61,316 nucleotides of DNA. It comes from Candidatus Hodarchaeota archaeon (GTDB taxonomy: Archaea; Asgardarchaeota; Heimdallarchaeia; Hodarchaeales; Hodarchaeaceae). The position numbers were made by a program, and so were the translations under genes. Under the pieces are notes generated by a model. The model was not told where the DNA came from. It saw nothing but the letters and a program-made list of their open reading frames with translations, and ran no database searches. The stretch covers positions 1 through 61,316 of the forward strand of contig JAEOTQ010000030.1 of NCBI GenBank assembly GCA_016839785.1, in the 5' to 3' direction. Within the stretch, counting starts at the first letter, position 1; each line of letters begins with the position of its first letter. Below are positions 265-21,560 of the stretch, piece by piece.

Positions 265-336
265 GGTATATACTTTTCTAATCTTAACCAGCCTTTTACG
301 GAGTTTGGGAATTAGTAAATCGTGAGTATATACCCG
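265..336 (+). repeat. Dispersed intergenic repeat, copy A (one unit plus the start of a second)
   Basis: Sequence ggtatatacttttctaatcttaaccagccttttacggagtttggg, followed by gagtatataccc. It matches the consensus shared by copies B-I. Confidence 0.8.
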
Positions 337-414
337 GTTTTTTTCCATGCGCAATGGGTGCTGAGGGGGTATGATCCCTACAGATCGTTAGATGATAATA
401 AAAGAGAAGAAAAT

Positions 415-3258
415 TTATGTATTCTTCTGTCTTCTAATAACTACTACAAGACTTAATATAAATATAAGAACAGAGATTATGTTAGGGAAAGAACCTTGTT
501 TTGATGTTGTAGAAGTCGTTGTAGTTGTCTCATCTGGTAGAGAGGTTATAGGGATTGTAGTGCTAGTAGGAATAATATTTTGAACCCCAAAAATCTCATC
601 AGAAATATCTTCAGCCATCAACCCCTCTACACATATAGCTTTTACTTTAATCAAGTAATTAGAGCCATCTGCGACACTAGTAGTATTCCAAGTGAAAGTA
701 AGAGAAGTAAGACTAGTAGCTATTTCAAACCATGTGATACCATTATCAAAGGAAAAATAAATTGAGTATGTGACAATATGATTGAGTGAATCCTCCGCCT
801 CACTCCAATGTATTTGGGTACTTCCTTTAAGAATTTCTCCACCATTGGGAGAGATGATAATTGGATCTGAGAGGCTGTGAGGAACAGTCGTGATACTAAA
901 AACAGCATCGGAAATATCAACTACAGATAAACCATTCGTACAAATTGCTAGGACTTTAAGGAGGTAGCTTGATCCTTCATCTAAAGATATGAGATTCCAA
1001 TTATAATCATTTGATTTCAAGTCTGACTCAATTAAAATCCAATTAGATCCATTATTTGGAGAATAATATAATTTGTAGGTAACTGGATGATTCCACGAAT
1101 CTATTGCAGTGGTCCATTGAACTGAGACCTCCCCAGATACGATCTCTCCACCGTTAGGAAATAAAACTTGAGGGATGGATAATGCATGTCTCAGATTCTC
1201 AATTGAAAATTGGCTATTAGAATAGTCACTTGAAACTAATCCCTCTGAGCAATTCGCAACAACATAAATCAAATATTCCGTTCCTTCTGCAACTGTGTTT
1301 GTGTCCCACTCAAAACTTGTGTTTGTTAGATCAGCTTGAAGCAAGATCCATGTTGTGCCATTGTCTTCTGAGTAGTAAAGAGTATAGCTAACGTTATGAT
1401 CCCACGAATCAATGGAAGATGTCCATTGAATTGTGATTATGTCAGATAAGGTTTCTCCACCGTTGGGATATAATACAAGAGGATCAGTAAGCTTGTGGAC
1501 ATATTGTGAATATGGGACGGTTAATGGATATAGATCTTGATTATTAGCTGGGCCGTCAATAGAGTAAGGCTGATCCACTATTCGATTTAAATCATTATCT
1601 GGGCCTATCCAATCGTTCCAATAATTATTTTCAAAGATATTTTTCAAAGTTGGATTTGTTTGTGAATCATAACTTTGAGATCCCCCTGTTTGTCTATTGA
1701 AATGAAAATCATTTCTAGTCAACAAAGAATGTTCCGAGGAGTAAAGATAGATTGCATACTCACTATTGTTTTCAAAAATATTGTAAGAGAAGGAAATATT
1801 TGTAGATGATAAGATGTAACACCCATAATAATTAATGCGTATATTATTAGAGAGGAATGTGGTATTTGAAGAATATCCAATTGTACAACCAATCATACTA
1901 TTATTCACAATAGAATTTCCAATAAGCGTATTATTTTCTGAATAAGCTAGAACGATTCCTTCGCCATCAGTATTCTGGACATAATTGTCAATAAGAGTGG
2001 AAGAGTTACTATATCGAAGTAAAAAGCCGTTAAAGCTTGAATTAAAAACCTGGTTATTTTGAATCACTGCCTTATTACAGTAATCTAATGCAACTGCAAC
2101 TTCTAGATTAGAAAATTCTTGATTAATGATCGATACATCACTACAATTCACTAAGATGATCTGTCCAGCACCATCAGGAACAGTTCCCCCATTACTATTC
2201 TTCCAATATACAACTGGTTTACCGTTTACAGAATTATTGATTACAGTTGTTTGAAAAAGGTGATTAAGTTGGTTTCCAATAATCCGTAATCCGAAATATG
2301 TGATTTCATTATCTTTAAAGCTATTTTTGGGGGAAGAGTCGATAAACATCCCCCTTCCATTCTGAAGAATCCTATTACTCTCCATGGTATTATTACTGGA
2401 ATTTGTCAGTCGTATGCCAAATTCACCGTTCTGGTCGATTGTATTTCTAACAAAAAGATTGTATTGGCAATTAGAGGAAACATAAATACTATACCCGTGA
2501 TCAATGATAATATTATCAGAAACAGTATTATTATTTGAGGAGGTGAGTATTGTTGCAAATCGACCGTTGCTAGTGATATTATTGGATGAGAGAGTGTTAT
2601 TATTTGAAGATGAAAGTGATATACCTCCATCTCCATTATCTAGCAAATGGTTGGAATGGATAGTAATGTTTCTTGAGTTAGAAAGAGTTATCCCATATTC
2701 ATCATGACTATTAATTGTATTATATAATATTTCATTATTCGAGCAAGAGTTTAAAACAATCCCATCACTTTGTCCAAAAACTCCAAGACTATAACGAATA
2801 GTGTTGTTTTGAATTAATGCATTAGTGACATTTGAGAGAACTAAACCATAACTACCCCCCTCAAAGATACAAAAAGAGAGGTTGAAATAGAGATTAGTAT
2901 TTCGGATCTCTACAAGTGGGAATGCGAAGGAACCTGTACTCTTAGTAATATTAAGTTCAGTAATGATATATGGGGATCCTAAAGATCCGTTCCCCGGCCA
3001 AGATTCATTTTGCGCTAGAGAATGAAAGGCTCCATTACCATCAATGTTTATTGGGTCACGTTCAGTTAATGAAAAATGAGGGTTAATATTGATCACTTCG
3101 CCTCCCTGAGAGAATTCATCTTCAGTTAAATGATAAGATATGAAAATATTAAATAGAGATGCAATCAGAATCGAGCCTACTACTCCAAGTATTAACAGTA
3201 ATGGTGAAATGTTTTTTTTCTGAATGGTATTTAAAAATAAATTTTGTCCTGGTTTCAT
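415..3258 (-). CDS. Cell-surface protein: N-terminal signal anchor, right-handed parallel beta-helix (PbH1/NosD-like) repeats, three tandem ~100-aa Ig-like repeats, Thr-rich stalk, C-terminal TM anchor
   Basis: 947-aa ORF. It has many N-rich ~22-aa beta-helix repeat units (SNNxIxxN-type). The tail reads TTTTTSTTSKQGSFPNIISVLIFILSLVVVIRRQKNT. N-x-S/T sequons are abundant. Confidence 0.85.
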   Translation of the reverse strand: MKPGQNLFLNTIQKKNISPLLLILGVVGSILIASLFNIFISYHLTEDEFSQGGEVININPHFSLTERDPINIDGNGAFHSLAQNESWPGNGSLGSPYIITELNITKSTGSFAFPLVEIRNTNLYFNLSFCIFEGGSYGLVLSNVTNALIQNNTIRYSLGVFGQSDGIVLNSCSNNEILYNTINSHDEYGITLSNSRNITIHSNHLLDNGDGGISLSSSNNNTLSSNNITSNGRFATILTSSNNNTVSDNIIIDHGYSIYVSSNCQYNLFVRNTIDQNGEFGIRLTNSSNNTMESNRILQNGRGMFIDSSPKNSFKDNEITYFGLRIIGNQLNHLFQTTVINNSVNGKPVVYWKNSNGGTVPDGAGQIILVNCSDVSIINQEFSNLEVAVALDYCNKAVIQNNQVFNSSFNGFLLRYSNSSTLIDNYVQNTDGEGIVLAYSENNTLIGNSIVNNSMIGCTIGYSSNTTFLSNNIRINYYGCYILSSTNISFSYNIFENNSEYAIYLYSSEHSLLTRNDFHFNRQTGGSQSYDSQTNPTLKNIFENNYWNDWIGPDNDLNRIVDQPYSIDGPANNQDLYPLTVPYSQYVHKLTDPLVLYPNGGETLSDIITIQWTSSIDSWDHNVSYTLYYSEDNGTTWILLQADLTNTSFEWDTNTVAEGTEYLIYVVANCSEGLVSSDYSNSQFSIENLRHALSIPQVLFPNGGEIVSGEVSVQWTTAIDSWNHPVTYKLYYSPNNGSNWILIESDLKSNDYNWNLISLDEGSSYLLKVLAICTNGLSVVDISDAVFSITTVPHSLSDPIIISPNGGEILKGSTQIHWSEAEDSLNHIVTYSIYFSFDNGITWFEIATSLTSLTFTWNTTSVADGSNYLIKVKAICVEGLMAEDISDEIFGVQNIIPTSTTIPITSLPDETTTTTSTTSKQGSFPNIISVLIFILSLVVVIRRQKNT
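577..1482 (-). repeat. Three in-frame tandem ~300-bp coding repeats inside the surface-protein gene
   Basis: The peptide units start LVLYPNGGETLSDIITIQWTS..., VLFPNGGEIVSGEVSVQWTT... and IISPNGGEILKGSTQIHWSE... Each is about 101 aa. Confidence 0.75.
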
Positions 3259-3733
3259 TTTAATCCCAAAATAAGTTCAAAGAAAGCTTTTAGCAATACT
3301 ATTCATAAAATTTAGATAATAGGAAATTAAAATTTTAAAAGTATATGGTTGTCGACTATCGTTGAAAGTACTTTCAAATATGGCCAAAAATAGCCAATTA
3401 TTTCTTATTTTTACTCTTCTATTCCCCCCCAGTTCGAAAATCTCCCATTATTTAAAATGAAATATAAAACACGTCTATTCGTAAGATTTTACAGAGGAAT
3501 AATGTTTTAACCAACGAACAGAGACATTTAAGCAGAAGAATTCTATGAAAAGTCTTTTTTCCAACGGTAAACGACGATTTTTGCATATTCCAATGAAATA
3601 ACTTAAAATTGTCTTGAAAGCCACCATTGATAGGATAAAAACGAATATAAAGTCAAGCTTAGTTATATGAATTGTTACAGACCTATTTGTGGTTGAAGTT
3701 GTCTGAGATTAAAATGCTAATTTTCAAATTTAC

Positions 3734-3792
3734 GGTATATACCTTTGTAAATACTTTTCCTATCTAAACCGGCCTTAGGTTCGGATTTGGGG
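3734..3792 (+). repeat. Dispersed intergenic repeat, copy B
   Basis: Sequence ggtatatacctttgtaaatacttttcctatctaaaccggccttaggttcggatttgggg. Confidence 0.75.
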
Positions 3793-3868: not shown

Positions 3869-4183
3869 TCAAGTATCCAATTTTTCTATTTTAAAACAAA
3901 CAGGTCGTATTCCATCAGGACATGTTGCATATATCGTATTCTGTCCTGTCCAATCTGGATAACCATTACCATTTCGCAACATCCATAATTCTTTAAAAAT
4001 TCCATACCAAGCATGTGGACAGAATCCTTTTGGTACAGACAAGATTTCATCAACTGTGAAAACTTGATTTTCTTCGACAAATCCACATTTCTTAATTGGT
4101 TCTCCTGATTCTCGAATAAAATCTTTTCCAATAACATCTTTTGGCTCAAATACTTTAGCAACAGTAATCCTATAACTTATCAT
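3869..4183 (-). CDS. TIGR04076-family small Cys-containing protein
   Basis: The motifs KKCGF...PKGFCPHAWYGI...ATCPDGIRPVCFKIEK are typical of TIGR04076. I prefer the ATG at 4183 because it follows taggaggagtttcttc (SD-like). The ORF track starts at 4216. Confidence 0.75.
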   Translation of the reverse strand: MISYRITVAKVFEPKDVIGKDFIRESGEPIKKCGFVEENQVFTVDEILSVPKGFCPHAWYGIFKELWMLRNGNGYPDWTGQNTIYATCPDGIRPVCFKIEKLDT

Positions 4184-4278: not shown

Positions 4279-4326
4279 GGTATATACCTTGATATATACT
4301 TTTGTTATCTAAACCAGCCTTTTACA
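4279..4326 (+). repeat. Dispersed intergenic repeat, copy C
   Basis: Sequence ggtatataccttgatatatacttttgttatctaaaccagccttttac. Confidence 0.8.
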
Positions 4327-4586
4327 TCACAAAGTGGATTTATTTTATCAAACTAGAGGGGGGATAAGCTAATGCGCGTTTAAAAATACCCTCTTCCTTT
4401 TTCGTTGTAGGTTTACAGTAATTGGCGCTAATGCTTTTAATACCTCAACTGTATTTCCTGCGGAACAATAGAAATCACAAGATTAGTGCCATTATCTTAA
4501 AGTTATTAACAGAAACTAAGTTTTTCTTAATTTGAAACATAAAAATCAGTTGAACTTTCAATAATACATTAACTACTGATTTAAGG

Positions 4587-5507
4587 TTGAATTTCATGTA
4601 TGAATTCCTAAGCTCATTCAAACAAGGGGTAGATCTATGGAGAAAAGCTAGATTTCAGCAAAGTGTGGGAATAATCCTGCTATTATTTACTGTAACCCCA
4701 ATTATCTCGATTATTGGAATTTTGCTCATAATATTGGTATCCAACATGAATATTGATCAATCCAGCCTCAAATCTGTGTTTATTTTGATACTTTCGAATC
4801 CGCTTTTTCTTCTTTTGATCTTTCTTCTACTTTGTGTGGGACTGTTTTTTGTGTTAATTCTAGTCGCTATGGTTCAAAAAATAGCTCACAACCATGCTTG
4901 TGGAAGTTTTTCTCGTTTTAAAGAGATTTTCAATTTAGTTATTTCAAAAAGTCTTCATCTCTCTCTTGTAGGGATGACAACAATATTAATTGCAGTAATT
5001 CCAATGCAATTACTGGTAATGGTATTAGTTCCGATAAAAGCAGCTGCACCCTCAATAATAAGTTCTAGTAGTATAGACTTAAATTTAGTATGGGATTTAT
5101 TTGAAGCTATTGTATTTTCTTTTATTTTTGCTCTGGTTGCGTGTGCAGGTTTTTTATCAATTTCTGCAATTATAATTGATGAAGTTGATCTAACTGCTTT
5201 TATTACTGGTTGGCGCCTCTTTTTAAAAGCTCCAGTATCGGCCTTAGGTTCGATGCTCATAATATGGTTGAGTTACCTTAGCGTTTTTCTATTTGGGAGA
5301 TTTTTGTTGTTAGAAATCTTATCAATTTTCATTTCTGATGAATTAGTGGTCTTTTTTGCTTTTTTGCTTTCAATATTGATTTTATTGTTTTTCGCACTAT
5401 TTGTACTCAGTCCTTTGTTCTTTACAATAATGTATTCAGTTTATTGGAATAAATATCGAAAGAATATCTCCACAACAGGAAAACCCCCCATGGACGACGT
5501 TCGTTAA
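4587..5507 (+). CDS. Polytopic membrane protein, unknown function
   Basis: 306-aa ORF with a TTG start and about 7 hydrophobic helices. I recognise no motif. Confidence 0.6.
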   Translation: MNFMYEFLSSFKQGVDLWRKARFQQSVGIILLLFTVTPIISIIGILLIILVSNMNIDQSSLKSVFILILSNPLFLLLIFLLLCVGLFFVLILVAMVQKIAHNHACGSFSRFKEIFNLVISKSLHLSLVGMTTILIAVIPMQLLVMVLVPIKAAAPSIISSSSIDLNLVWDLFEAIVFSFIFALVACAGFLSISAIIIDEVDLTAFITGWRLFLKAPVSALGSMLIIWLSYLSVFLFGRFLLLEILSIFISDELVVFFAFLLSILILLFFALFVLSPLFFTIMYSVYWNKYRKNISTTGKPPMDDVR

Positions 5508-5668
5508 AGCGTTAATTTTCTCCAGAAGCATTGATTTTCGAAAAAAAATGCTTAATATTTTCCAATTTAGCTTTAAAATGAGTTTTGTGAGTGATACAGA
5601 AATTGTAATCTCGAATACAATCCATGCGAGGAGGAAAGCAGCCAATTTAAACTTTTTCTTCAAACGTT

Positions 5669-7021
5669 TTAATCAGAAAAGCATTTTCGAAAGCGTTCAT
5701 TTAGATTCGGGATATTTAGAAAGAAATAATAATCGTAAAGAAGCTCAATTATCGTAAGCCAATCATTCCAAGAATAATAGTGCAGTATCTCGTATGCCTT
5801 CCGATTTTCTTGAAGTTTTAGCTTTTTGATTAATTCTCTATCTCCATGATATGATGTAAATGCACGAAATTCATGAAAACATTTTTTATCAATTTTAGGA
5901 TGATCTGGGTGGAGAAATTCTAGCATTTTTACTAATGAATCAAGTAACCATTGACGTTGATCTGTTTCCCATTCAGGGTCAAATTCACCAATATAGTTGA
6001 TATTTCTACTTATTGGTCCGTAGAGCTTTTGAGTAGTTATATTTCCTTGAATAACACGGTAACCCATTTCAATAATTAGGTTGGCATCTTTAAGAGCTTT
6101 GGTGTAACGATATATGGTTTTCTCTGTTTTTGGTATTGATGCTGCTTTATTATATTTTTCTGTAAGTTCTTTTATTGTCATAGGTCCATCTTGTAGGACG
6201 TGAAAAAGTGGAATATAGGATGATTTCTCTAAATAGTGATGTCTTGGGTCATTTGGTGATAATCCATACCAAAATTCTGGAAATTGCTTAATCACATTTC
6301 GGTATTTCCCAATTTCCTCTTCCTGTTTTTTTCTATCAATGGTAGGACGATGTTCAGTTTGACTTATTTTAGAGTCGCTAAAACACTTTAAAAATTTCTC
6401 TTGAGCTCCCGCATCCTTTAGAAGAAACGATTCCCAGCCTAGAAAAGCAATAATATCATTAAAACTATATGGTGTCCAGATAGATAATATCTCTAATATA
6501 TCTGTATTTTCTGAACTAATTAATCGCTTTTTATCTTCTTCTATACTTTCTATTAACTGTTTATGCCACTTACTTAGAGCTTGCTCGTCAATCTTTTTAT
6601 TAGGGTAAATCAAGTTTAAAAGATTTATCAATTCTTTGAATATCATCTTTCCACGGTTTTCTTTCCCTCCCTCGTCCACAATGAAATAATTTGCTGTGAG
6701 GGAATAAAGAGTCTTATTGTGTACCTTCCCTTCTACAACTCGCTTTCCAGCTTCTTGAACAATGTTGTTCAATTTTAGCAATGTTATAAAACGATAAATC
6801 GTGGTTTTACTGCTTGCTTTCGCAATTTCCACTAACTTTGTATATTCTTCTGTTAAATCTTTAATTGTCAGTGGACCTTTTTGATACAGAATCTTCAGAA
6901 GGTTTAAGTAACGGGGATTACGGAGGATTTGAATTTGGTCTGGATTCAAAATAGTTTTTACTAGTTCTGGTTCGATAATAATAATATCCTGATATTTTTC
7001 TTTTGAAGAATTGATTTTCAT
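5669..7021 (-). CDS. Transcriptional regulator with two winged-helix (ArsR/TrmB-like) modules
   Basis: There is an internal duplication. LKILYQKGPLTIKDLTEEY...TIYRFITLLKLNNIVQE parallels FHVLQDGPMTIKELTEKY...TIYRYTKALKDANLIIE. Confidence 0.65.
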   Translation of the reverse strand: MKINSSKEKYQDIIIIEPELVKTILNPDQIQILRNPRYLNLLKILYQKGPLTIKDLTEEYTKLVEIAKASSKTTIYRFITLLKLNNIVQEAGKRVVEGKVHNKTLYSLTANYFIVDEGGKENRGKMIFKELINLLNLIYPNKKIDEQALSKWHKQLIESIEEDKKRLISSENTDILEILSIWTPYSFNDIIAFLGWESFLLKDAGAQEKFLKCFSDSKISQTEHRPTIDRKKQEEEIGKYRNVIKQFPEFWYGLSPNDPRHHYLEKSSYIPLFHVLQDGPMTIKELTEKYNKAASIPKTEKTIYRYTKALKDANLIIEMGYRVIQGNITTQKLYGPISRNINYIGEFDPEWETDQRQWLLDSLVKMLEFLHPDHPKIDKKCFHEFRAFTSYHGDRELIKKLKLQENRKAYEILHYYSWNDWLTIIELLYDYYFFLNIPNLNERFRKCFSD

Positions 7022-7303
7022 AGGCTTTTACCTGAATTAAATCTACTATCCTTGTAACCGGTTTGAGACCTCGTACGGTTTAGAAATGAGTTAAATTAGT
7101 TATATTCTCCATTACAGATGGAAATAAATAGATTCCTAACTCCACTATGAGATACAAAGCATTTGTCTTTTAATATCTTCTATAAGAATATTATTTACCT
7201 ATTATCTCATCTATTTCCTTTATTATTACTTATCCACAAATACTTTTTATACTTATATTAATTGGCCTGCCCATTTCATAAGATATATATATTATTCTAT
7301 GAA

Positions 7304-7321
7304 ATGAATTAATTAATTCAT
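7304..7321. promoter_or_regulatory. Perfect 18-bp palindrome ATGAATTAATTAATTCAT in the divergent regulator intergenic region (candidate operator)
   Basis: The sequence is its own reverse complement. It lies 24-41 nt upstream of the 7345 start and is flanked by the repeated ATGAAATGA. Confidence 0.3.
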
Positions 7322-7344
7322 GAAATGAGATAATTAATGAAATT

Positions 7345-7611
7345 GTGAGTTTTTCAATCATGTCTAGTAAAAATTTAGTAGATAAGAAATTGGTAAACAG
7401 TTTAACTCCCTCAGCACAATTGGTGTATAAAACGCTACAATTGAACAAGAAAATGTATGTAGGGGATCTTATATCCAAAACCAGTTATTCGCCACGAACC
7501 ATCCGGAATGCTCTTCGCCAATTGAAGAATGTTCATCTGGTAATTCAAGTTCCTGATATGATGGATCTACGTCGACATCATTATGCTATCAACACGAACA
7601 TCGCATTTTAA
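7345..7611 (+). CDS. Small winged-helix DNA-binding protein
   Basis: 88 aa. LVYKTLQLNKKMYVGDLISKTSYSPRTIRNALRQLKNVHLV reads as an HTH plus wing. The start is GTG 7345 or ATG 7360. Confidence 0.6.
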   Translation: MSFSIMSSKNLVDKKLVNSLTPSAQLVYKTLQLNKKMYVGDLISKTSYSPRTIRNALRQLKNVHLVIQVPDMMDLRRHHYAINTNIAF

Positions 7612-7711
7612 GATAACAGGGACAACAGAAGGCAGAATGAAATGATTAAAATTGTTACAATGAAGAGTATCTCGATCTCAATTATGAACTAAAAAATAGA
7701 GGTGGATTAAA

Positions 7712-8629
7712 ATGGTTTATTTAAAAAAATCAACGTTTATAGAAGCTGAAACAAGACCTTCTATACTTTCTGGACATCCTTGGGTAAGTATTATGGTATT
7801 TGCAGTACTTTTCTTGGGTTCAGCCATCATATCAAAAATATTCTTTCAATGGTTATCATTGATGGGACTAGTAATTAATCCAATAAGTGAAACGATCATT
7901 GGATTTATAATGGGTATTGTCGTTTTTTTTGGAATAGTACCTTATATTCTAGGTTTACCAAAAGGAAAAATGTCTTTACGGAGATTTTCATACACAATTG
8001 GAATTCGTAGACCTAAATCATCAATCAAACTCCTCATAGTCTTCCTACCATGTATTGTTATCCTATTCTCAAGTTGGTTGCTAGCGTCATTTATTCATAA
8101 TTACCTAGTAATTGGATGGGATCTTAATTACTTTCTAATGAGACTATTAGATTTTTCACGCGCCCTTCCTCCTAAAAACTGGGCCATAATAACAGCTATT
8201 GGATCTATATTTGAAGAAGTCGTTTTTCGAGGGATTTTCATCACAATGCTCTTGGAAAAATACTCCGAGCGAAAATCCATTGGAATGTCTGCAGGTGCAT
8301 TCGGAGTAATCCATCTGATGAATTTGTTAAATGGTCCTTTAACGGCCGACTTATTCCTTGAGGTAGTTGTCCAAATTCTTTATGCAACTTCATATGGTCT
8401 ATTTTATGGTTATTTGTTCATCAAAACGGGTAATTTAATTCCAAATATGGTGTTACATTATGTAGGTAATGGTTTTATAAGTTTCTGGTGGTTTACTCCC
8501 GATGGTCCTTACGCTTTTTACCTATTACTGATGCTCATATTTTATATTGGACCATTTCCCACTATTTTGTCAATTATTTGGGTTAGATACTCCACACAAT
8601 GGTATTCAGGAAAAATTGGGGAGATTTGA
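7712..8629 (+). CDS. CPBP-family intramembrane glutamic endopeptidase (CAAX protease / Abi family)
   Basis: All three motifs are present: FEEVVFRG (EExxxR), FGVIHLMN (FxxxH) and LHYVGN (HxxxN). The protein is polytopic. Confidence 0.85.
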   Translation: MVYLKKSTFIEAETRPSILSGHPWVSIMVFAVLFLGSAIISKIFFQWLSLMGLVINPISETIIGFIMGIVVFFGIVPYILGLPKGKMSLRRFSYTIGIRRPKSSIKLLIVFLPCIVILFSSWLLASFIHNYLVIGWDLNYFLMRLLDFSRALPPKNWAIITAIGSIFEEVVFRGIFITMLLEKYSERKSIGMSAGAFGVIHLMNLLNGPLTADLFLEVVVQILYATSYGLFYGYLFIKTGNLIPNMVLHYVGNGFISFWWFTPDGPYAFYLLLMLIFYIGPFPTILSIIWVRYSTQWYSGKIGEI

Positions 8630-9181: not shown

Positions 9182-9187
9182 AACGCG

Positions 9188-11955: not shown

Positions 11956-11975
11956 GTTTAAACATACACATAAAC

Positions 11976-12194: not shown

Positions 12195-12198
12195 AACC

Positions 12199-12594: not shown

Positions 12595-12619
12595 TTTTAA
12601 TCCACCTTTCTCTTTCCAA

Positions 12620-13047: not shown

Positions 13048-13081
13048 TTGTCTTACAAATCAACCGTTTTGTCTTACAAAT
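13048..13081 (+). promoter_or_regulatory. Two direct copies of TTGTCTTACAAAT spaced 21 bp apart, upstream of cbiM (candidate NikR operator overlapping the promoter)
   Basis: Exact 13-mers lie at 13048-13060 and 13069-13081. Each contains a TTGT-n3-ACAA inverted half-site. Confidence 0.4.
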
Positions 13082-13113
13082 AAATATTCTTGTTTAAGAA
13101 AGGCGTAGAAGAA

Positions 13114-13797: not shown

Positions 13798-13803
13798 TTC
13801 AAA

Positions 13804-14109: not shown

Positions 14110-14907
14110 ATGACCGATATACACCATCACTATAGTGCTCTACAGACTCAGAAGCAAGTATTAGATATTAGGAGTAAGCTTATCGGCTTAGTTCTTATTG
14201 TCCTTGGATGTTCCTTCCTTGTTGATTTCTCTCAAGTCTCTTGGTATACAATTCTTCTTCTCCTTCTCGTCCTCATTTTAAAGCCTCGAAAAACAATTTT
14301 AAAACAAATTGTTTTAACACTCCCTTTAATTATTTCACTATCGCTTATTTCATTTTTTTCTTTTGATCCGCCAACATATACCAATTTTTTGTTTGAAGCA
14401 ACACATAATAAAGTTTCATTTGCATTATTTACTGCCTTTCGTAGCATTGTAATAATATCCTACATCTTGGTAATCGTTAATTCTGAAGAGTCATTTTTCG
14501 AAATTATTTACGGATTGGATGATTTAAAACTTCCAGGGTTACTTACAAACTTGTTATTTTTAACCTATCGTTTTTTTAGTCTTATCCAAGAGGAATTTTC
14601 GCGAATTTTAGATGCTCGTTCGAATCGAATGTATAGTGAGAGTTCTATCATGCAATTAAGATCATTAAAACTTATCGGTAACATTTTAGGAGCCTCACTT
14701 GCTCGATCGTTTAAACGCGCTGAATACATTTCAGCTTCGTTGTCTGCAAGAGGTTTTTCAGGCACTAGTAAATTCTCTCATCCCGAAAAACCATGGACAC
14801 GAAGTGGTTTCTTATTTGTTATCTTTACAATAAATATCAGCATTTTTATTGGATTTTATGGGCAGAATTCACCTATTGATTTGCTTTTAGGATTGTTATT
14901 CCGATGA
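14110..14907 (+). CDS. cbiQ: ECF transporter T component CbiQ
   Basis: The protein is polytopic. Its position and 4-nt overlap with cbiO fit the operon, and it has the ARSNR/ARGF motifs. Confidence 0.75.
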   Translation: MTDIHHHYSALQTQKQVLDIRSKLIGLVLIVLGCSFLVDFSQVSWYTILLLLLVLILKPRKTILKQIVLTLPLIISLSLISFFSFDPPTYTNFLFEATHNKVSFALFTAFRSIVIISYILVIVNSEESFFEIIYGLDDLKLPGLLTNLLFLTYRFFSLIQEEFSRILDARSNRMYSESSIMQLRSLKLIGNILGASLARSFKRAEYISASLSARGFSGTSKFSHPEKPWTRSGFLFVIFTINISIFIGFYGQNSPIDLLLGLLFR

Positions 14908-15614
14908 AGTTGGATACTGAATACGCATTGAGTGTTCGCAATTTAAGTTATAAATATATGAAAAACCAGCCTGAGGTTTTGAGGAACATTTCTGTTAATT
15001 TTCCTCTTCATAAAATCACAGCTATTGTCGGGCCTAATGGATCAGGTAAGACTACTCTAATGAAGCATTTTAATGGCCTTTTTTTGGCTCAAAATGGTGA
15101 AATCTTTGTAAACGGCCAAGTTCTAATTAAGAAAACTCGTAAAACCATTCAAAAACAGATTGGTTTAGTTTTTCAGAATCCAGATGAACAGATTTTTTAT
15201 CCAAAAGTCTATGATGATGTATCATTTGGCCCAAGGAATATGAACTTGAGTAAAGCTGAAATCCATGAAAGAGTCGTTCAAGCTGGAAAATCAGCCCAGA
15301 TCTCACATTTAATGGATCGAATCACTTTCAATTTGTCCTTTGGAGAAAAAAAGAAAGTAGCTTTTGCTGGTATCTTAGCTATGCGACCTGATATACTTGT
15401 ATTAGATGAACCCACCATCGGTATAGATCCATGGTCGAAAGATCATTTTATTACTCTCATCAGATCTTTTAGCCCTGAAAAAACAGTGATAGTAATAACC
15501 CATGATTTTGAAATAATGAAATTTGTTGATTACATTATACTTATGAAAGAAGGCGAAGTAAAGGGTAAGTATACTGACTTTAACTCCTTTTTTCAAGAAG
15601 AATTTACTAGTTAA
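14904..15614 (+). CDS. cbiO: ECF transporter ATPase CbiO
   Basis: Walker A GPNGSGKTT, signature LSFGEKKKV and Walker B ILVLDEPT are all present. Confidence 0.9.
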   Translation: MKLDTEYALSVRNLSYKYMKNQPEVLRNISVNFPLHKITAIVGPNGSGKTTLMKHFNGLFLAQNGEIFVNGQVLIKKTRKTIQKQIGLVFQNPDEQIFYPKVYDDVSFGPRNMNLSKAEIHERVVQAGKSAQISHLMDRITFNLSFGEKKKVAFAGILAMRPDILVLDEPTIGIDPWSKDHFITLIRSFSPEKTVIVITHDFEIMKFVDYIILMKEGEVKGKYTDFNSFFQEEFTS

Positions 15615-15623
15615 GGTGATTTA

Positions 15624-16040
15624 ATGACTTTAAAAGAAATTCGTGAGACAGTTACTTTTTCTTGTAATCCACGATTCAAAAAATTACTTTCTACGAAGAA
15701 GACAGAATTCGGATATCAAACAAAATCTCAAATGATTAGGGATGCACTTCAGTTCTTTTTCGATTCAGAAAAGATGTTAGAGAGGGCTTCTGATACTGAT
15801 CTGATCGTGACGTTGATTTCAGTTAGTTACAATCATCATGATTCAACTACACTAGAAGAATATTTGCGTGTACAACATAAATCTAATGTAACCTTTTCTT
15901 CACATTTTCATCTACCCTCTGGTGACTGTATTGAAATTTTAATGATAAATGATCAGGCTAAAAATGTTAAAAAGCTAATTCAAGAGCTACGTAGTATTAA
16001 TGGTTTGAAAAATATATCTTTCAAATTAAACCATGACTAA
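15624..16040 (+). CDS. nikR: NikR-type nickel-responsive ribbon-helix-helix regulator
   Basis: The N-terminal RHH reads VTFSCNP...QMIRDALQFF. The C-terminal His/Cys metal site reads YNHHD...VQHK...HFHLPSGDCIE. Confidence 0.8.
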   Translation: MTLKEIRETVTFSCNPRFKKLLSTKKTEFGYQTKSQMIRDALQFFFDSEKMLERASDTDLIVTLISVSYNHHDSTTLEEYLRVQHKSNVTFSSHFHLPSGDCIEILMINDQAKNVKKLIQELRSINGLKNISFKLNHD

Positions 16041-16064
16041 TTTTGTCAAACAACTAGTTGAAAA

Positions 16065-16499
16065 CTAATTCTGGACAGGATGAGTCACACATCCGCTATC
16101 CGGCAGGTTAGCAACCAGAGACTGGTTGCTTTCCATTGGGACTACTTGGGAACCAGAGTGAAACCGTTGAAGAATATTACGGGCAGCATTGTAGTCGGCA
16201 TTCAGATGAACTCCACACTCCTGACAACAAAAAGAACCACGCGAACGCCGATTCTTCTTCGCTAGATGCCCACACTTACTACATTGCTGGGAGGTATACG
16301 CTTCATTGACTCGGAGTACGGTCATACCAACCAGTTTAGCCTTATATTCAAGCATTTGCACGAATTGGAGAAAGGGTAGCTGGACAAACGCTTGATTGGT
16401 ACGTTTTCCAAGATTACTGCGCTGTTTCCACCCCGTATTATACCCAAGAACGATCGTTTGAATTTTCTGCGTTAAACAATAATTGATAATTCGACGGTT
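16065..16499 (-). pseudogene. tnpB: 5'-truncated tnpB (IS200/IS605-family OrfB): C-terminal RuvC-II/zinc-ribbon/RuvC-III part only
   Basis: The frame is open from 16499 with no start. It reads ...IVLGYNTGWKQRSNLGKRTNQAF...EAYTSQQCSKCGH...CQECGVHLNADYNAARNI. It ends abruptly at the GGTATATACC of repeat copy G. Confidence 0.8.
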
Positions 16500-16557
16500 G
16501 GTATATACCCTAGTATATACTTTTCTAATCTAAACCAGCCTTTTACGACGTTGGGGA
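16500..16557 (+). repeat. Dispersed intergenic repeat, copy G (closest to consensus)
   Basis: Sequence ggtatataccctagtatatacttttctaatctaaaccagccttttacgacgttgggg. Confidence 0.85.
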
Positions 16558-16618
16558 ATCAAAACCTGTTCGGAAATATGCTCATTCACATCTAGATGGC
16601 GCTCTTCTATCGATTGAT

Positions 16619-17410
16619 TTATTTCAGGTTGCGTGCAAGTCCGAAAAAAACTGGGATAAATGAAAATAATTCGGCAGAATTATGTGATTCAAGCATTTGT
16701 TGTAGTTTTGCTAGTTTATGTTTATTTTTCTCTGGAAGGAAGTGCCCAAGCTTCTCCATTTCTAATTCGTATAATTCATTTACAATATCAGGGGAGAGTA
16801 CTGTTGACTGAAGTCCTATTTCAGCTTTCAATCCCACTTGGAAAAAGATACTTCTCAACTTTCGTCCAATGAAGGGGTCATGAGCTGATAAAGATCCTAG
16901 AAGGAGTTCTTCCCACAACTCACTTGCGGGGTAATCGAGGCGTCCTCCATAATCGGGTTCAGCTAAACAGGCTATCCACTTTCCAACACGTGTAACTCGT
17001 TTCATTTCTTTTAGAATAGTAAGAGGTTCTTTTACCCACATTAAAAAATAATGGCACAGAGTGATATCGAAACTATTCGATGGGAAGGGTAAGATCTCTC
17101 CCTTCCCATGAATGATATTTGGATAAAATGATTCTCCTCGAGAATAGTTTAATGCAATTGAATTCCAATCAATGCCCACTAAATTTGCTTTCGGATTTAT
17201 TGTCTGAATTTCCCTTAAAACTGCTCCTGTTCCTGAACCCACCTCAAGGATTTGTTTGGCATGAAATAAATTCATTTTACGATATAGTTGCTTTCTGGTT
17301 GAAACCGTCCATTCCATCTGCTCTTCATAGAGCTCATTGAAATAGCGAGCCTCTTCCTCCGTTTGAATTTGATCTTTCAAGGCTAGTCGTTTGCTTGACT
17401 TTCGGGACAT
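16619..17410 (-). CDS. Class I SAM-dependent methyltransferase
   Basis: ILEVGSGTGAVL is the motif I signature. It overlaps the upstream radical-SAM gene by 28 nt. Confidence 0.8.
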   Translation of the reverse strand: MSRKSSKRLALKDQIQTEEEARYFNELYEEQMEWTVSTRKQLYRKMNLFHAKQILEVGSGTGAVLREIQTINPKANLVGIDWNSIALNYSRGESFYPNIIHGKGEILPFPSNSFDITLCHYFLMWVKEPLTILKEMKRVTRVGKWIACLAEPDYGGRLDYPASELWEELLLGSLSAHDPFIGRKLRSIFFQVGLKAEIGLQSTVLSPDIVNELYELEMEKLGHFLPEKNKHKLAKLQQMLESHNSAELFSFIPVFFGLARNLK

Positions 17411-18708
17411 ATGTATTCCTCACGATAAAAACTCAGAGGACAGCCGCCACCACAAAGATCAAGTTGGTTACAATCCCTGCACTCATCAGGGGCGTTTGCA
17501 TGGGTGCGAAGATCTTTAGATATCGGATTATTCCATATGCTTTCCCAACTATCATGGAGGATATTACCTAATCCCTTGTAGTAGCTCTGACAGGGAATAA
17601 CTGTCCCATTTGGTTCTATTGCCATAGCTAAATGGGATGCAGAACATCGTTTCACACCCAAACCTAGGTTATTCGGATCGAGTTCGCAGTAACGAGTAGG
17701 GGTGTACCAAATGAACTGTAAATCATATGCATCTGCGGTATCTTGTATTGATTCAAGAATGGGGATCAATTCGCTCTCTGTGAATGCGATGTGTGAGACA
17801 TTTTCTCCTTTTCCTGCATATATTATTGAGTTACAGGCGAATTGTTCCACTTCAAGACTAGCTAAGAATTCTATAGTCTCTTCGATCTTGGGGGCATTCA
17901 ATCGTGTTAAAGTGGTATTCGTTAATGTATAAATAGATGTATCTATAGCATTTTTGATACCTGTCACAGTTTCAACCCACGCCTGATCATTTCCTACCAT
18001 CTGGTTGTGAATCCGCTCATCTACACTTTCAAAGGTGATCTGAATATGGTCTAGACCGTTATTTACTAGTCTATCCACATATTTATCATCTTGTAGATTT
18101 CTACCATTTGTTATAAGACCTGTAACAATTCCAATATTCTCTGCATGATCAATCATTTCAGGCAGATCAGAGCGTAACGTGGGTTCCCCACCCGTGAAGG
18201 TTATATGGGGGATGGAAATTTTCCAAAGTTTTTCTAGAATAGATTTCCATTGAGTAATATCTAATTCATTTGCATTTGGTGAATTCGGTTGATTGTAACA
18301 ATGTTCACATTTATTATTACAACGGTAAGTGATTGCTAAATCCATTCGTAAAGGAGCTGTCAAATTTAGCTCTGTTAGATTTGATTCTTCCATCTTTAAG
18401 GAATGGATTGGACAAATATCATCGGTAGTGGATAAGGTGTGAATCATTTCTTTCAGGGAGTGCAGATCTGTTGTAGCTTGCTGCTCATTGACGCGGTAAA
18501 GACTTCTTAGCTCCTTAATGATATCAGCGTCAGTATTACCTTTCAAAATTCTTTCCACAAAAAAAGTGGCTGTAGGATTGAGATTCAATATTCTTGAGGC
18601 ATTGATAATCAGGAGACTACTATCACCTTGTCTACGGAGGTGTAATCGGATTTCTCCATCATTTCCTTCTCGTAAATGTATAAGCTTTGCTTCTTCAGTA
18701 GATTTCAT
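17383..18708 (-). CDS. Radical SAM / SPASM-domain enzyme with PqqD-like (RRE-type) N-terminal domain
   Basis: It has CNNKCEHC (CX3CX2C). The C-terminal CSASH...PCQ and CRDCNQLDLCGGGC (CX2CX5CX3C) form the SPASM motif. The N-terminal ~90 aa read LLIINASRILNLNPTATFFVERILKGNTDADIIKELRSLY. Confidence 0.85.
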   Translation of the reverse strand: MKSTEEAKLIHLREGNDGEIRLHLRRQGDSSLLIINASRILNLNPTATFFVERILKGNTDADIIKELRSLYRVNEQQATTDLHSLKEMIHTLSTTDDICPIHSLKMEESNLTELNLTAPLRMDLAITYRCNNKCEHCYNQPNSPNANELDITQWKSILEKLWKISIPHITFTGGEPTLRSDLPEMIDHAENIGIVTGLITNGRNLQDDKYVDRLVNNGLDHIQITFESVDERIHNQMVGNDQAWVETVTGIKNAIDTSIYTLTNTTLTRLNAPKIEETIEFLASLEVEQFACNSIIYAGKGENVSHIAFTESELIPILESIQDTADAYDLQFIWYTPTRYCELDPNNLGLGVKRCSASHLAMAIEPNGTVIPCQSYYKGLGNILHDSWESIWNNPISKDLRTHANAPDECRDCNQLDLCGGGCPLSFYREEYICPESQAND

Positions 18709-20211
18709 TCATCGTCCACCTCCAGCACAAGCACAGGCACAACCAGCACATGCACAAGCGCAACCTCCGCCACCTCTTGAACCTCCACTACTACTTATGG
18801 GAACTGGATGACTTATTCGTGTCACTCGGTGAGTGAATGATCTCCCATGGGGGATCCAGTGCCATCTATGGTAACCATAATGGTAATACCACGGATAGTA
18901 TGGGTAATACTCCTCTCGCTCTGTTATTTGTACTTCTAACTCTGGGAGGAATTCTTCATCTAAGATTGCCCAAAACCAGGCTTCTTGGGGAATATTTCGT
19001 GGATCAGATTCGGATTTGATTGTTGCAACTGAATCTTGTATTAATTTTTCATAATATTCTACTGTTCTTTCGTATGAATATCCACGGATACGTCGTTGAG
19101 TGTATTTAACTAAGCTGGATACTGCTTTCACCATATCATCTTCATCAATAGAAAAATCTGGTCGTATTGATTGTATGACGATTTTTTGGTATTTACTGAG
19201 ATGCTTCTGTGAAGCACCTTCCATCAGTTCAAGGTGAGGATTATCATGGGATAATTCTCTAAGTCGTCCTTTCTGGATCAATGTGAGAATTATCATTGAG
19301 ATTGTAATATTTACAGGCTTTTCTAAGACAATGGCCACTTCTTCTCGTCGAAGATTTGTTCGCGGCCCTGCTGTCGGGACTGAAACAAAGGGCGGAATAT
19401 AATCCATCAATCGGCGGCGTTTCTTCGTATATATTAAGGTAACAACTACAATTACAACTAGTATTACCCCCACAAAACCCGCAAACAACAAAAGTTCCTC
19501 TATTGTGGGAGGAATACTTGTGTACCAGGTTACTCCTTCTTTCGGGAAAGAAACTCCGTATTGATATTGTACTGAAGGAGAAGCCAGGGGTTCATTCCAT
19601 TCGAATACTTTACGGCCATCAACTGAAGAATATTCTCGTTCAGGTGGATCTGAATAGTGATATTTGGTATATGTTGTTTCATCTACGGTTGTAGGAAATA
19701 TAATTCTAGTTGTTAGATTTGTTGTACCTGTAGTATACGGGGAACTCCACCATGTATTTCCGAATTCTACACTTGCCATATCGTCTTCTTCGGTATCTTC
19801 AAATATCATGTACGGTTGGTTTCCCTTAACATGCAAAATCCCTGTGTCATGGATAGCGTATTGACCAAGATGGATTTCCACACCGATATTGATCACTTCG
19901 GATTCCCGAATGTCTGAGATAGAGTGTCCATCTACATCTGCAGTCACACTTCCTAGTTTGTAATGTTTGTTCGGAAAACCGATGTCTATGATGTCAATAT
20001 CCTGTCCACCAAGCGCTACAGTAAAATTAATCCAATATTCTATGTCAGTAGATCCGTCGATGTTGATACTTACTTCTACTATTTCCTCTGGAACAGAAAA
20101 ATAGTAAGTGTTCGTAGCTTCAGTATTACTTTTGACTCCACTTAATGGCGTGAGTGCCAATAAGAGAATGAACCCAATCAAATAAGAGGAACGGACTTTT
20201 GTTATCTTCAT
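18709..20211 (-). CDS. Membrane protein with DUF2207-like ectodomain, one TM helix, a cytoplasmic domain and a C-terminal Gly/Cys/Ala tail (candidate radical-SAM substrate)
   Basis: It has a signal peptide. The ectodomain reads YYFSVPEEIVEVSINIDGSTDIEYWINF. The TM helix is LLLFAGFVGVILVVIVVVTLIY. The tail is SSSGGSRGGGGCACACAGCACACAGGGR, and its TGA abuts the next ATG. Confidence 0.85.
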   Translation of the reverse strand: MKITKVRSSYLIGFILLLALTPLSGVKSNTEATNTYYFSVPEEIVEVSINIDGSTDIEYWINFTVALGGQDIDIIDIGFPNKHYKLGSVTADVDGHSISDIRESEVINIGVEIHLGQYAIHDTGILHVKGNQPYMIFEDTEEDDMASVEFGNTWWSSPYTTGTTNLTTRIIFPTTVDETTYTKYHYSDPPEREYSSVDGRKVFEWNEPLASPSVQYQYGVSFPKEGVTWYTSIPPTIEELLLFAGFVGVILVVIVVVTLIYTKKRRRLMDYIPPFVSVPTAGPRTNLRREEVAIVLEKPVNITISMIILTLIQKGRLRELSHDNPHLELMEGASQKHLSKYQKIVIQSIRPDFSIDEDDMVKAVSSLVKYTQRRIRGYSYERTVEYYEKLIQDSVATIKSESDPRNIPQEAWFWAILDEEFLPELEVQITEREEYYPYYPWYYHYGYHRWHWIPHGRSFTHRVTRISHPVPISSSGGSRGGGGCACACAGCACACAGGGR

Positions 20212-20348
20212 TAGAATAGCCTGCTTAATTATTTAGTTGCGTTAAAGTTCACCTAATATTAAGAAGGTTTTCGTTCCAGACCTTTTTCAAATCCTGTTCC
20301 TAATCTTCCATCTAATTGCATCATGGACTACAGTAGTAGTAAGACATC

Positions 20349-20400
20349 ATCCAAATTGATGTTGTTGTATATGTTAGTGACTAGAAGGATGGAAACTTGG
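20349..20400 (+). pseudogene. Orphan copy of the last ~11 codons plus stop of the ridA-like gene
   Basis: atccaaattgatgttgttgtatatgttagtgactagaaggatgg aligns with 11794-11840. It encodes IQIDVVVYVSD-stop, against IQIDVVAYVSD-stop in the intact gene. Confidence 0.7.
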
Positions 20401-20426
20401 TGGTTATTAGCTGAATTTCCTTTTCT

Positions 20427-20584
20427 AATAGTATTGACTCTAGTATAGACTTCTCTAATTTGAAGTAGCCAAGGAAGACATTCTTGTCAATTCATGGTTA
20501 TTCAATTTCAAAGTTTAGGGAGTGAGGATTTACGCTTGCGAATACTTTTCCGATCTAAACCAGCCTTTTGTGGAGTTGGGGAAG
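20427..20584 (+). repeat. Dispersed intergenic repeat, copy H (two units)
   Basis: Unit 1 is aatagtattgactctagtatagacttctctaatttgaag...gtcaattcatgg. Unit 2 is gcgaatacttttccgatctaaaccagccttttgtggagttgggg. Confidence 0.75.
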
Positions 20585-20698
20585 AATCACTTTACCCCAG
20601 TATTGGAATTAGAACGTCCAGAATGTTGTAAGAGACGAAGAAAATTATAAAAGGTTTTCTTAGTGTTATGATCTTAATCGATTTCGTAGTGAGTTAAT

Positions 20699-21472
20699 AT
20701 GTCGATAAATTTTCATGATGAAGAGAACCGTTTCGGATATGCAAAGCGACAGGTTGATTCAGGTTGGATTAAAAAAATCCTAGAGATAGTAAATCCGCGA
20801 GAAAAGCATGTAATAGATATAGGATGTGGAGGAGGGATATATACGAGAGCATGGGCTCAACTTGGCGCATCTGAAGTTCTTGGACTTGATTTTTCCGAAA
20901 ATATGATTCAAACTGCGAGAGGAATGTCAATCAATATTCCAAATATTTCTTTCCTTGTTAGAAACGCGATTTCAACCCGTTTAGAAGACAAAATCACGGA
21001 TATTGTTTTCGAACGGGCGCTTATTCATCATATCTCTGATATTTCTGGTTGTTTGAGTGAGGCATTGAGATTATTAAAATCTGGTGGTATATATATTATT
21101 CAAGATCGGACGCCTGAAGATATAACTGTTCCTGCGTCAAAAGAACATATAAGAGGATATTTCTTTGAAAAATTTCCATTTCTCTTAGATATTGAATATA
21201 AACGCCGTCCCAGAACAAATATAATCCAGAAAAAATTGAAAGAGACTGGTTTTATGGAAATCAAGAGCTATTCTTTATGGGAAACCCGGAAAATTTATCA
21301 AAATTTAGCTGATCTGACCATTGATATGCGTGAACGAACAGGGAGATCAATTCTTCATGAACTTAGTAATAAACAACTAGAAGAATTAATTGATTACATT
21401 TCTATTAATATCCAATCAGAAAAAATGATTATTGAGAAAGATCGTTGGACAATTTGGTCCGCAATCCGATGA
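20699..21472 (+). CDS. Class I SAM-dependent methyltransferase
   Basis: VIDIGCGGGIYT is the motif I signature. 257 aa. Confidence 0.8.
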   Translation: MSINFHDEENRFGYAKRQVDSGWIKKILEIVNPREKHVIDIGCGGGIYTRAWAQLGASEVLGLDFSENMIQTARGMSINIPNISFLVRNAISTRLEDKITDIVFERALIHHISDISGCLSEALRLLKSGGIYIIQDRTPEDITVPASKEHIRGYFFEKFPFLLDIEYKRRPRTNIIQKKLKETGFMEIKSYSLWETRKIYQNLADLTIDMRERTGRSILHELSNKQLEELIDYISINIQSEKMIIEKDRWTIWSAIR

Positions 21473-21527
21473 TTTTATATCAGAGTTTAAACATCTTTGA
21501 TTCAATCCAAAAACGCTTTGTCCCACA

Positions 21528-21560
21528 GGTTATACTTTCCCTATCTAAACCATCTATGTG
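21528..21560 (+). repeat. Dispersed intergenic repeat, copy I (partial)
   Basis: Sequence ggttatactttccctatctaaaccatctatgtgg. Confidence 0.55.

Follow-up and report, generated by a model that had tools for sequence, protein, structure and literature searches.

A candidate polar recombination site at the borders of exchangeable gene cassettes in Hodarchaeales

Contig JAEOTQ010000030.1 of a Candidatus Hodarchaeota archaeon (assembly GCA_016839785.1) raises the question of what a short intergenic repeat of about 52 nt is doing within its first 21.6 kb, where it recurs on one strand only, between genes that face either way. The window analysed here was this entire 61,316-bp contig (C163), which belongs to a metagenome-assembled genome (MAG) of 4.04 Mb in 248 contigs, 84.5% complete. 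With moderate confidence, we read the repeat unit as a polar site at which double-stranded DNA recombines and which delimits the mobile cassettes of a hypervariable chromosomal array, that is, as a functional analogue of an integron with a different site. Hodarchaeales are the archaea currently placed closest to eukaryotes; Asgard genomes, notably those of the Heimdall/Hod group, hold large accessory gene sets with many imported genes, and the import routes are poorly known.

A sequence-only covariance model was built from copies of the unit and run on the whole window with filters off. Eleven matches were obtained, all on the + strand and all below 21.6 kb (E 1.8e-18 to 1.2e-07); after these, the best match in the window reached only 10.9 bits (E 0.023). 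Taking T0 as the T of the anchor motif TCTAAACC, the copies were copy 1 (257-313, T0 of the equivalent motif at 282, 48.9 bits, E 2.5e-14), which is a core without the 5' palindrome called box 1 below; copy 2 (3735-3791, T0 3763, 45.1 bits); copy 3 (4280-4329, T0 4308, 46.2 bits); copy 4 (11231-11282, T0 11258, 51.3 bits); copy 5 (11877-11932, T0 11905, 37.7 bits); the tandem pair of copy 6 (12622-12681, T0 12650, 52.3 bits) and copy 7 (12696-12754, T0 12723, 46.1 bits); copy 8 (16501-16560, T0 16529, 62 bits, E 1.8e-18), which is nearest the consensus; the tandem pair of copy 9 (20431-20490, 37.2 bits) and copy 10 (20527-20584, T0 20554, 47.6 bits); and copy 11 (21523-21574, 27.8 bits, E 1.2e-07), the last recognisable unit. 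Copies 5, 9 and 11 are degenerate. The nine loci of the initial annotation were all recovered in this way, as eleven units with two loci double, and a repeat search of the window also grouped ten unit copies as one family (D4).

The confinement to the first 21.6 kb, which had been claimed from the outset together with the single strand, was upheld by a control on the remaining 39 kb (22-61 kb, both strands): there a position weight matrix (PWM) of the 40-nt core, used with a threshold of 18 bits and giving 18-60 bits on real copies, did not exceed 0.5 bits, and no unit was found. Rfam at gathering thresholds and ARAGORN gave no match in the window. All copies lie between long open reading frames (ORFs), as the annotation had it, the one overlap being a 75-aa ORF with a TTG start across copy 4, which is probably spurious. 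The start-to-start spacing ranged from 74 to about 6950 nt and the intervals contain genes; in agreement with the earlier denial of any such periodicity, an array of clustered regularly interspaced short palindromic repeats (CRISPR) was rejected, there being no regular repeat-spacer period.

The polarity of the unit was examined over the arrays of the same genome and the loci recovered by the searches, to which all locus statistics given here refer. Among 145 copies, 73 neighbouring unit pairs were co-oriented and 1 was opposed. Genes showed no such preference: the downstream ORF lay on the strand of the unit in 34 cases and on the opposite strand in 33, the upstream ORF in 33 and 34, and 107 ORFs in the loci were co-oriented with the units while 94 were opposed. 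The median distance from the unit was 140-175 nt to the 5' ends of genes and about 70 nt to their 3' ends, and four of the nine window loci face the 3' end of a convergent gene. Since the flanking genes face either way, and from the distances to gene ends, the unit is not a promoter or terminator of its neighbours, and these statistics reject both roles as a general explanation; the annotation had likewise held that the units keep the + strand whatever the orientation of the flanking genes and that they are not simple terminators.

The only back-to-back pair of units seen was in locus L066, at 5042 (-) and 7121 (+). Between them lies an ORF (5274-6587) for a 437-aa protein with an N-terminal winged helix-turn-helix (DUF7347/ArsR) and about 360 residues without a Pfam match, and no recombinase domain was found in this enclosed protein. 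The same locus also encodes a homologue of Hcp (T6SS_HCP) at 8167-8790.

An information profile was drawn from 78 copies anchored at T0. Information jumps at -16, is high until +11 and lower to +23, and beyond that it falls to background, the flanks being unrelated. The strongly conserved stretch from -16 to +23 reads GTATATAC-TTTT-SYA-ATCTAAACCAGCC-(TTTT)-ACGRMGTT: box 2, the well-conserved palindrome GTATATAC (-16 to -9), is followed by TTTT and three variable bases, by the invariant block ATCTAAACCAGCC (-1 to +11), by a semi-variable stretch at +12 to +15 (TTTT, TTTG or ATGG, the last in copy 7) and then by ACGRMGTT. Upstream of box 2, across a spacer of 3-4 nt, box 1 is the palindrome GGTATATACC at -28 to -20, which carries 0.3-0.8 bits per position and is present in about half of the copies. 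The perfect palindrome with which the unit had been said to open is therefore real but only half conserved, the conserved one being GTATATAC. Free variation was seen at the three bases -4 to -2 and the four bases +12 to +15, each flanked by invariant blocks, and across 132 unique copies from many species the invariant blocks were broken by a few free positions. Judged from the sequences, this alternation of invariant and free positions points to a protein recognition site.

No fold accompanied this conservation. RNAalifold gave no consensus fold for the 132 unique copies on either strand, and mutual information among them linked only adjacent positions, with no long-range covariation. Single-sequence folds of six copies or strands gave z scores from -0.1 to -2.5, the only recurrent stem being that of box 1 with box 2, and copy 8 folded no more stably than its shuffled versions (z -0.26). 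On these grounds we rejected both a structured RNA and a site that folds as a single strand. A coding reading was rejected as well: the ATGG variant opens short ORFs (MDD[NV]RVN...), whereas most copies have TTTT or TTTG at this place and the continuations are unrelated. Sub-families of the unit with an altered invariant block (TTAATATAACCAACGTT; ATCCATACCAGYC) were found at C118:2256-2308, C188:25478-25521, L099, L105 and L060 (182 and about 838); their sequences suggest that site specificities may be diverging within the genus.

The initial annotation had proposed a covariance-model scan of the genome and its relatives, and when this was run the copies proved to be mostly clustered and co-oriented and, among the genomes sampled, confined to one genus. 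The genome of the window holds about 26 copies (E<1e-3), mostly in co-oriented arrays on three contigs, namely the window contig C163 with 11 copies (all +), C123 (12.6 kb) with 6-7 (all +) and C20 (7.0 kb) with 7-8 (all -); besides these, C142 and C67 have solo copies, and variant copies, two in all, lie on C118 and C188. The unit also accounts for the breaks of Hodarchaeales assemblies at these places, the three contigs of this MAG that carry arrays starting or stopping within them; no end overlap was found that would join C123 and C20 to the window start. Within one GTDB genus the unit was detected in 18 of the 19 genomes sampled, with 1-24 copies each, the sole negative being a 1.4-Mb partial genome, and it was absent from all 12 genomes sampled outside this genus, which represent other genera of its order or class. 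An exact pattern of 20 specified bases matched 26 GTDB loci, all in Asgard MAGs labelled Heimdall-, Hod-, Thor- or Hermodarchaeota, and the two with the Thor- and Hermodarchaeota labels agree with genomes of the same GTDB genus. The pattern was also present on 20 sediment metagenome contigs, and it had no match in IMG/VR viral contigs. In a complete 4.9-Mb genome of the genus only three good copies were found, not co-oriented, and array size therefore differs greatly among species.

Comparison between genomes made it clear that the units bound blocks of genes which have been shuffled. The Cbi-NikR block (window positions 12816-16033) has a counterpart with 89% identity over 3.2 kb in L039 (3763-6984), which lies between units at 3716 and 7130 and has other neighbours on both sides; copy 7 aligns with the L039 core located before the same cassette. 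The VapBC cassette is 89% identical to a cassette in L045 that has other neighbours and is preceded by a well-preserved core, and a DinB block occurs in C20, L048, L053, L060 and L068 in differing contexts. The ketopantoate reductase region that follows copy 11 is 83% identical to metagenome contig L070, in which it stands directly after a well-preserved core, so the array probably extends past copy 11; the gene itself is present in only 2 of 21 genus genomes. Homologous cassettes of different genomes were 72-95% identical. The contexts of solo copies and array ends were all different, with no conserved anchor gene next to them. In this MAG alone the unit delimits at least 40 kb of hypervariable sequence, with blocks exchanged among species of the genus, and it flanks many unrelated segments; it is not a conserved piece of one duplicated segment, as the annotation had allowed that it might be.

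To which position of the unit does the exchange map? We compared unit pairs that share the left flank only (eight) or the right flank only (five, one of which proved to share both). L034 and L072, for example, represent two strains, 99.6% identical over 2.5 kb and unrelated directly after CCAGCCTTT of the unit. In the left-sharing pairs L034/L072, L048/L053 and L053/L054 the variable markers, including rare ones, were kept to about +14 and were followed by divergence, while the right-sharing pairs L070/L076, L067/L074 and L048/L060 were identical from the right, with differences within the unit as far as -2, +1 or +10. Six of the eight informative pairs fit a single exchange window at +11 to +14, ATCTAAACCAGCC|TTT (GCC|TTT), at the 3' edge of the invariant block, and this sequence-based mapping is suggestive. 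In the other two pairs, L060/L061 and L032/L040, homology stops at -19, in the stretch that separates box 1 from box 2. Window copy 1 has a junction of the same type (J1-type): read directly from the sequence, an orphan box 1 (GTATATACC) stands at 326-334 on the + strand, 44 nt past the T0 of copy 1, and is followed by unrelated, non-core DNA. Among the informative pairs no junction was found in -16 to -5, though markers exist at -4 to -2. The branch of the earlier hypothesis that invoked site-specific recombination fits these data, since the units bound shuffled blocks and homology breaks inside the unit.

Co-oriented direct repeats bounding unrelated blocks suggest insertion and excision of circles of the Campbell type, for which we infer a circular intermediate and an enzyme. 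In such a scheme two direct units would recombine and release the intervening DNA as a circle carrying one unit, and the circle could re-insert at any chromosomal unit by a Campbell-type exchange; the cycle would leave all copies in the same orientation whatever way the cargo genes face. The main exchange would take place at GCC|TTT (+11 to +14), with a minority of junctions at about -19, and the left part of each unit would then travel along with the cassette upstream of it, the right part with that downstream. The enzyme might be the XerA-type tyrosine recombinase of the host, used on an atypical site; other candidates would be a protein not yet described or one encoded by an unbinned extrachromosomal element.

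We searched for the recombinase by families. With the integron integrase model (TIGR02249, cut-off 265 bits) no gene above cut-off was obtained in 21 genomes of the genus; the best match in the genome of the window was a XerA-like gene on C174 (87.5 bits), and only G003, the MAG with the IntI reported by Ghaly et al. (PMC9668308), shows an IntI-like gene (186 bits), whose contig carries no unit. The Y1 transposase Y1_Tnp (PF01797), which the initial annotation would have expected, was absent from the genome of the window and from 19 of the 21 genus genomes, and the two positive genomes are not repeat-rich. General tyrosine recombinases were searched in the genome of the window and six repeat-rich genomes of the genus, and in these seven no match lay on an array-bearing contig. 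The genome of the window has XerA (C174:22774-23541), one other integrase (C143) and a pseudogene (C113). A XerA-like gene is present in 19 of the 21 genus genomes, as a single gene in all except G003. The earlier suggestion of a tyrosine recombinase thus met with XerA in nearly all genomes of the genus but, in the seven searched for tyrosine recombinases in general, with none on the array contigs, and none of the classes searched (integron integrase, Y1 of the HUH type, serine and general tyrosine) tracks the unit.

Several results weigh against the unit being a recombination site of this kind. No recombinase was found linked to the arrays, and no recombinase family is recurrent in them; serine recombinases are absent from the genome of the window and occur in only 7 of 21 genus genomes, and in the repeat-rich G005, G007 and G015 the XerA orthologue is the sole tyrosine recombinase. 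The unit lacks the 11-6-11 dyad of Xer/dif sites, as judged by inspection against the dif of Pyrococcus abyssi (PMC2958812), which may not be that of this genus, and with one arm of which it shares only the 7-mer ATCTAAA. All the genomes are MAGs, in which the absence of a gene is weak evidence. Solo copies were present at several loci of better-assembled genomes. Only the eight flank-sharing pairs mentioned above are informative, two of them require the second junction, and markers within the unit show little linkage beyond groups that lie side by side; for these three reasons homologous recombination between 40-bp repeats keeps its place among the explanations. Lastly, in Logan contigs from four DNA runs, which are short and shallow (3-8x), no clean excision or circle junctions were seen; the rare core-to-core joints reach only 21-28 nt to one side and cannot be trusted.

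Homologous recombination or gene conversion of the ordinary kind, without a dedicated enzyme, would act between repeats whose conservation serves another end, such as binding by a chromatin, insulator or regulatory protein. The unproductive recombinase searches, the two junction classes at both edges of the conserved block and the weak marker linkage all suit it, the paired palindromes GTATATAC-N4-GTATATAC look like the operator of a dimeric DNA-binding protein, and Campbell-type homologous integration of circles would also produce direct repeats. We nevertheless consider it rather unlikely, as it needs only identity between partners and leaves the alternation of invariant and free positions across species unexplained; moreover, the 12 nt between -16 and -5 contain no junction, 40 bp is short as a substrate, and the unit is conserved across species in which homologous cassettes are only 72-95% identical. 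Position-specific conservation across species, together with breakpoints clustered at the edge of the invariant block, favours a sequence-specific protein over plain homologous recombination. In another alternative the unit would be the target or duplicated site of a cut-and-paste or cut-and-copy enzyme and not of a conservative recombinase, either a casposase or Cas1-like integrase that duplicates a repeat of about 30 nt or a homing-type endonuclease whose break is repaired by copying of the cassette. The junctions at -19 and +11 to +14 lie about 30 nt apart and bracket the best-conserved segment as the ends of a duplicated repeat would, and the arrays resemble CRISPR arrays with gene-sized spacers. 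Duplication predicts, however, that right-flank-sharing pairs share the whole unit, and three differ inside it; the variable bases differ between neighbouring units of the window, the inserts have no terminal inverted repeats, and the commonest Pfam families of 128 array proteins included no endonuclease or Cas1, with no search aimed at Cas1. This makes duplication or homing improbable in our view.

An archaeal promoter or regulatory module that spread with its genes, and that would consist of a TATA-like box, a conserved initially transcribed region and a GGAG ribosome-binding site, is very unlikely. It is true that GTATATAC resembles an archaeal TATA box and that a few gene starts are rightly spaced: the DinB cassette has its ATG on the opposite strand, some 25 nt away from the middle of box 1, and may be one of a few in which a palindrome of the unit serves as a TATA box, and the VapB gene starts after a GGAG in copy 5, which may be its Shine-Dalgarno sequence. 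Such a module is at odds with the random orientation of flanking genes (34 to 33), with gene starts typically 140-175 nt away and with the four window loci that face convergent 3' ends, and it does not explain co-orientation across genes of both strands. The conserved positions fall in the interval from the TATA-like box to the predicted start, and not in a transcript, and in the single metatranscriptome run the sparse contigs spanned the unit and did not start within it. Finally, the units could be the ends or relics of a single-strand HUH/Y1 element (IS200/IS605, palindrome-associated transposable elements, or repetitive extragenic palindromes with RAYT-like transposases) or a miniature inverted-repeat transposable element, the HUH/Y1 branch being the one favoured by the initial annotation. 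Strict orientation, the ability of box 1 and box 2 to pair as a 9-bp hairpin and the tnpB fragment adjoining copy 8 speak for this origin. It is hardly credible when set against the missing Y1 transposase, the lack of terminal inverted repeats or target duplications, the clustering of copies mostly on three contigs where dispersal would be expected, the absence of a consensus fold or covariation (with copy 8 no more stable than shuffled sequence), and a tnpB fragment on the other strand without ends of its own.

The tnpB fragment deserves closer description. It encodes 145 aa of the C-terminal part of TnpB at 16065-16499 (-), and its truncated 5' end adjoins box 1 of copy 8: the frame is open to nt 16499, and the palindrome starts at 16500, exactly as annotated. 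Residues 44-109 form the TNB domain, preceded by a stretch typical of TnpB (...RRIINYCLTQKIQTIVLGYN...), while the N-terminal two thirds are missing. The homologous Cbi-NikR cassette of L039 has no tnpB ORF, yet it has the same 13-15 nt or so beside box 1. We read the fragment as a decayed passenger in the tail of the cassette and not as evidence that an IS family mobilised the unit; its abutment on box 1 means that unrelated DNA can join the outer edge of box 1 directly. In four sediment metagenomes the summed contig depth over window positions 16009-16675 was 35-93x versus 2-10x elsewhere, from which it follows that these communities contain many repeats of the tnpB family and, with it, of the unit.

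The known systems nearest to the unit in function are sedentary chromosomal integrons and clusters of attC sites lacking integron integrases (CALINs). These, too, are long arrays of short co-oriented sites that separate variable, mostly accessory cassettes, many of them toxin-antitoxin or gene-less, with the same cassette in different neighbourhoods across genomes; exchange near the 3' edge makes each site a chimera of two cassettes, and AAC...GTT is the only symmetric element around the exchange point of the unit, comparable to the R''/R' boxes. The AAC and GTT are, however, only about 15 nt apart, the genomes with the unit have no IntI above the 265-bit cut-off, the unit is conserved in sequence and not in a single-strand fold, and its cassettes are often multi-gene and face either way (107 to 94). 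In an attC test all that could be recognised of the complement of TCTAAAC was GTT at +21 (3.3 of 7 matches; background 2.0). Classification as an integron proper was rejected, as there is no IntI and no attC-like fold and the ORFs are not co-oriented with the sites. Ghaly et al. (2022; PMC9668308) described archaeal integrons and gave attC contigs for two of the same MAGs (NJBF01000090 and JAEOTM010000022); the unit arrays of those MAGs are on other contigs (NJBF01000094 and 035; JAEOTM010000005, 052 and 112).

Elements that exploit Xer, such as arrays of integrative mobile elements (IMEX) at dif and the pdif modules of Acinetobacter plasmids, are also modules without a recombinase of their own, bordered by short host-type sites, and here a XerA-type gene is the only tyrosine recombinase shared by nearly all the genomes, and nearly every genome of the genus keeps at least one unit. 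On inspection, no 11-6-11 dyad like that of such sites was seen in the unit, and pdif modules are flanked by inverted sites whereas the units are direct. Serial insertion of integrative elements at tRNA or gene-end att sites (archaeal SSV-type and pNOB8-type integrases) would leave co-oriented direct repeats as well, but no integrase was among the commonest Pfam families of the 128 array proteins, the unit is not part of a tRNA or gene, and many unit-bounded inserts are blocks of one or two genes or are empty. In Neisseria, intergenic mosaic and minimal mobile elements likewise use short conserved intergenic repeats as the places where gene blocks are exchanged; they differ in depending on transformation and on homologous recombination in flanking genes or dRS3 repeats, and we know of no strict polarity over tens of kilobases in them.

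A literature search with the unit sequence and for Asgard integrons or mobile elements and Hodarchaeales islands gave no published description of the unit; in the circularised Heimdallarchaeum genomes of Wu et al. (2022) only repeats of at least 100 bp were counted. We tentatively propose, as a possibility short of our main reading in confidence, that Hodarchaeales have a cassette-capture system of their own that follows integron-like logic, works on a double-stranded, sequence-specific site, and uses the housekeeping XerA or else a recombinase not yet described. If this is true, the system would build exchangeable arrays of accessory genes over tens of kilobases and could be a main route of gene import in the lineage. 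A specific enzyme acting on the 52-bp site would represent a second, independent invention of the integron principle, in archaea, and the site would be a candidate tool for site-specific insertion in organisms lacking genetics. The motif can also be used to flag accessory DNA in Hodarchaeales MAGs. Toxin-antitoxin pairs are among the exchanged blocks, as are an operon for nickel/cobalt transport, methyltransferases and a set of genes for radical-SAM maturation.

The cassettes of the window, as assigned by Pfam, begin with a 947-aa right-handed beta-helix protein (Beta_helix/NosD) at 314-3734 (-). Between copies 2 and 3 lies a 115-aa ORF that recurs after a unit in another genome (L103), and the next cassette is a large multi-gene one of about 7 kb (4330-11230) with two CAAX/Rce1-like proteases, an ICMT-like methyltransferase, an AAT-family acyltransferase and two proteins without a confident Pfam match. 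It is followed by a RidA/L-PSP cassette (11283-11876, +), a VapB antitoxin with a PIN toxin (11934-12621, +), the CbiM-PDGLE-CbiQ-CbiO-NikR operon with the tnpB fragment (12755-16500, +), a cassette of a methyltransferase, a radical-SAM/SPASM enzyme and a 500-aa protein (16561-20430, -; GC 0.40), and a SAM methyltransferase (20586-21522, +). Ketopantoate reductase (21575-22700, -) is a probable further cassette, with no recognisable unit after it. The two window tandem pairs, 74 and 96 nt from start to start, enclose gene-less intervals ("empty cassettes"), and an arrangement like that of copies 6 and 7 was found on C123 (twice), on C20 and in L043.

Over all array loci, 140 of about 200 ORFs called (at least 70 aa) were singletons, and multi-gene cassettes were common. 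The 128 array proteins matched 124 Pfam families, of which PIN came first (9), followed among others by HepT/MNT and MazE-type antitoxins; C20 consists nearly entirely of toxin-antitoxin cassettes, with four PIN pairs, one DUF3368/UPF0175 pair and one DinB gene. One family of large proteins with tetratricopeptide repeats (613-834 aa), in which no recombinase domain was found, is met repeatedly in or beside arrays of several genomes, at C123:5035-6876, L031:4241-6139, L045:1343-3847 and L053:6993-7982.

Some further observations were made on the window sequence. The GC content of 16001-20000 is 0.40 against 0.32-0.35 in its neighbours, which fits a foreign origin of the methyltransferase and radical-SAM/SPASM cassette. 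The last 36 nt of RidA with the next 40 nt (11794-11869) are duplicated with 82% identity at 20349-20424, before the degenerate copy 9; by its sequence this duplicate is a putative relic of the end of a second RidA cassette, and it implies that the beginning of a unit can move along with its left flank. Upstream of cbiM, two direct GTCTTACAAAT boxes (about 13040-13085) are conserved in L039 (about 4000-4045) and could serve as operator for the NikR whose gene closes the operon. A 1781-aa ORF (42208-47553) consists mostly of DxDxDG-type (thrombospondin type 3-like) calcium-binding repeats and is the source of repeat families D1-D7. Two copies of a hairpin with a T-run (GAATCAGCTTAGATAA.TT.TCTAAGTTATTTTTTT), 92% identical, were found at 24799-24836 and 25870-25907; they resemble terminators and have no relation to the cassette unit.

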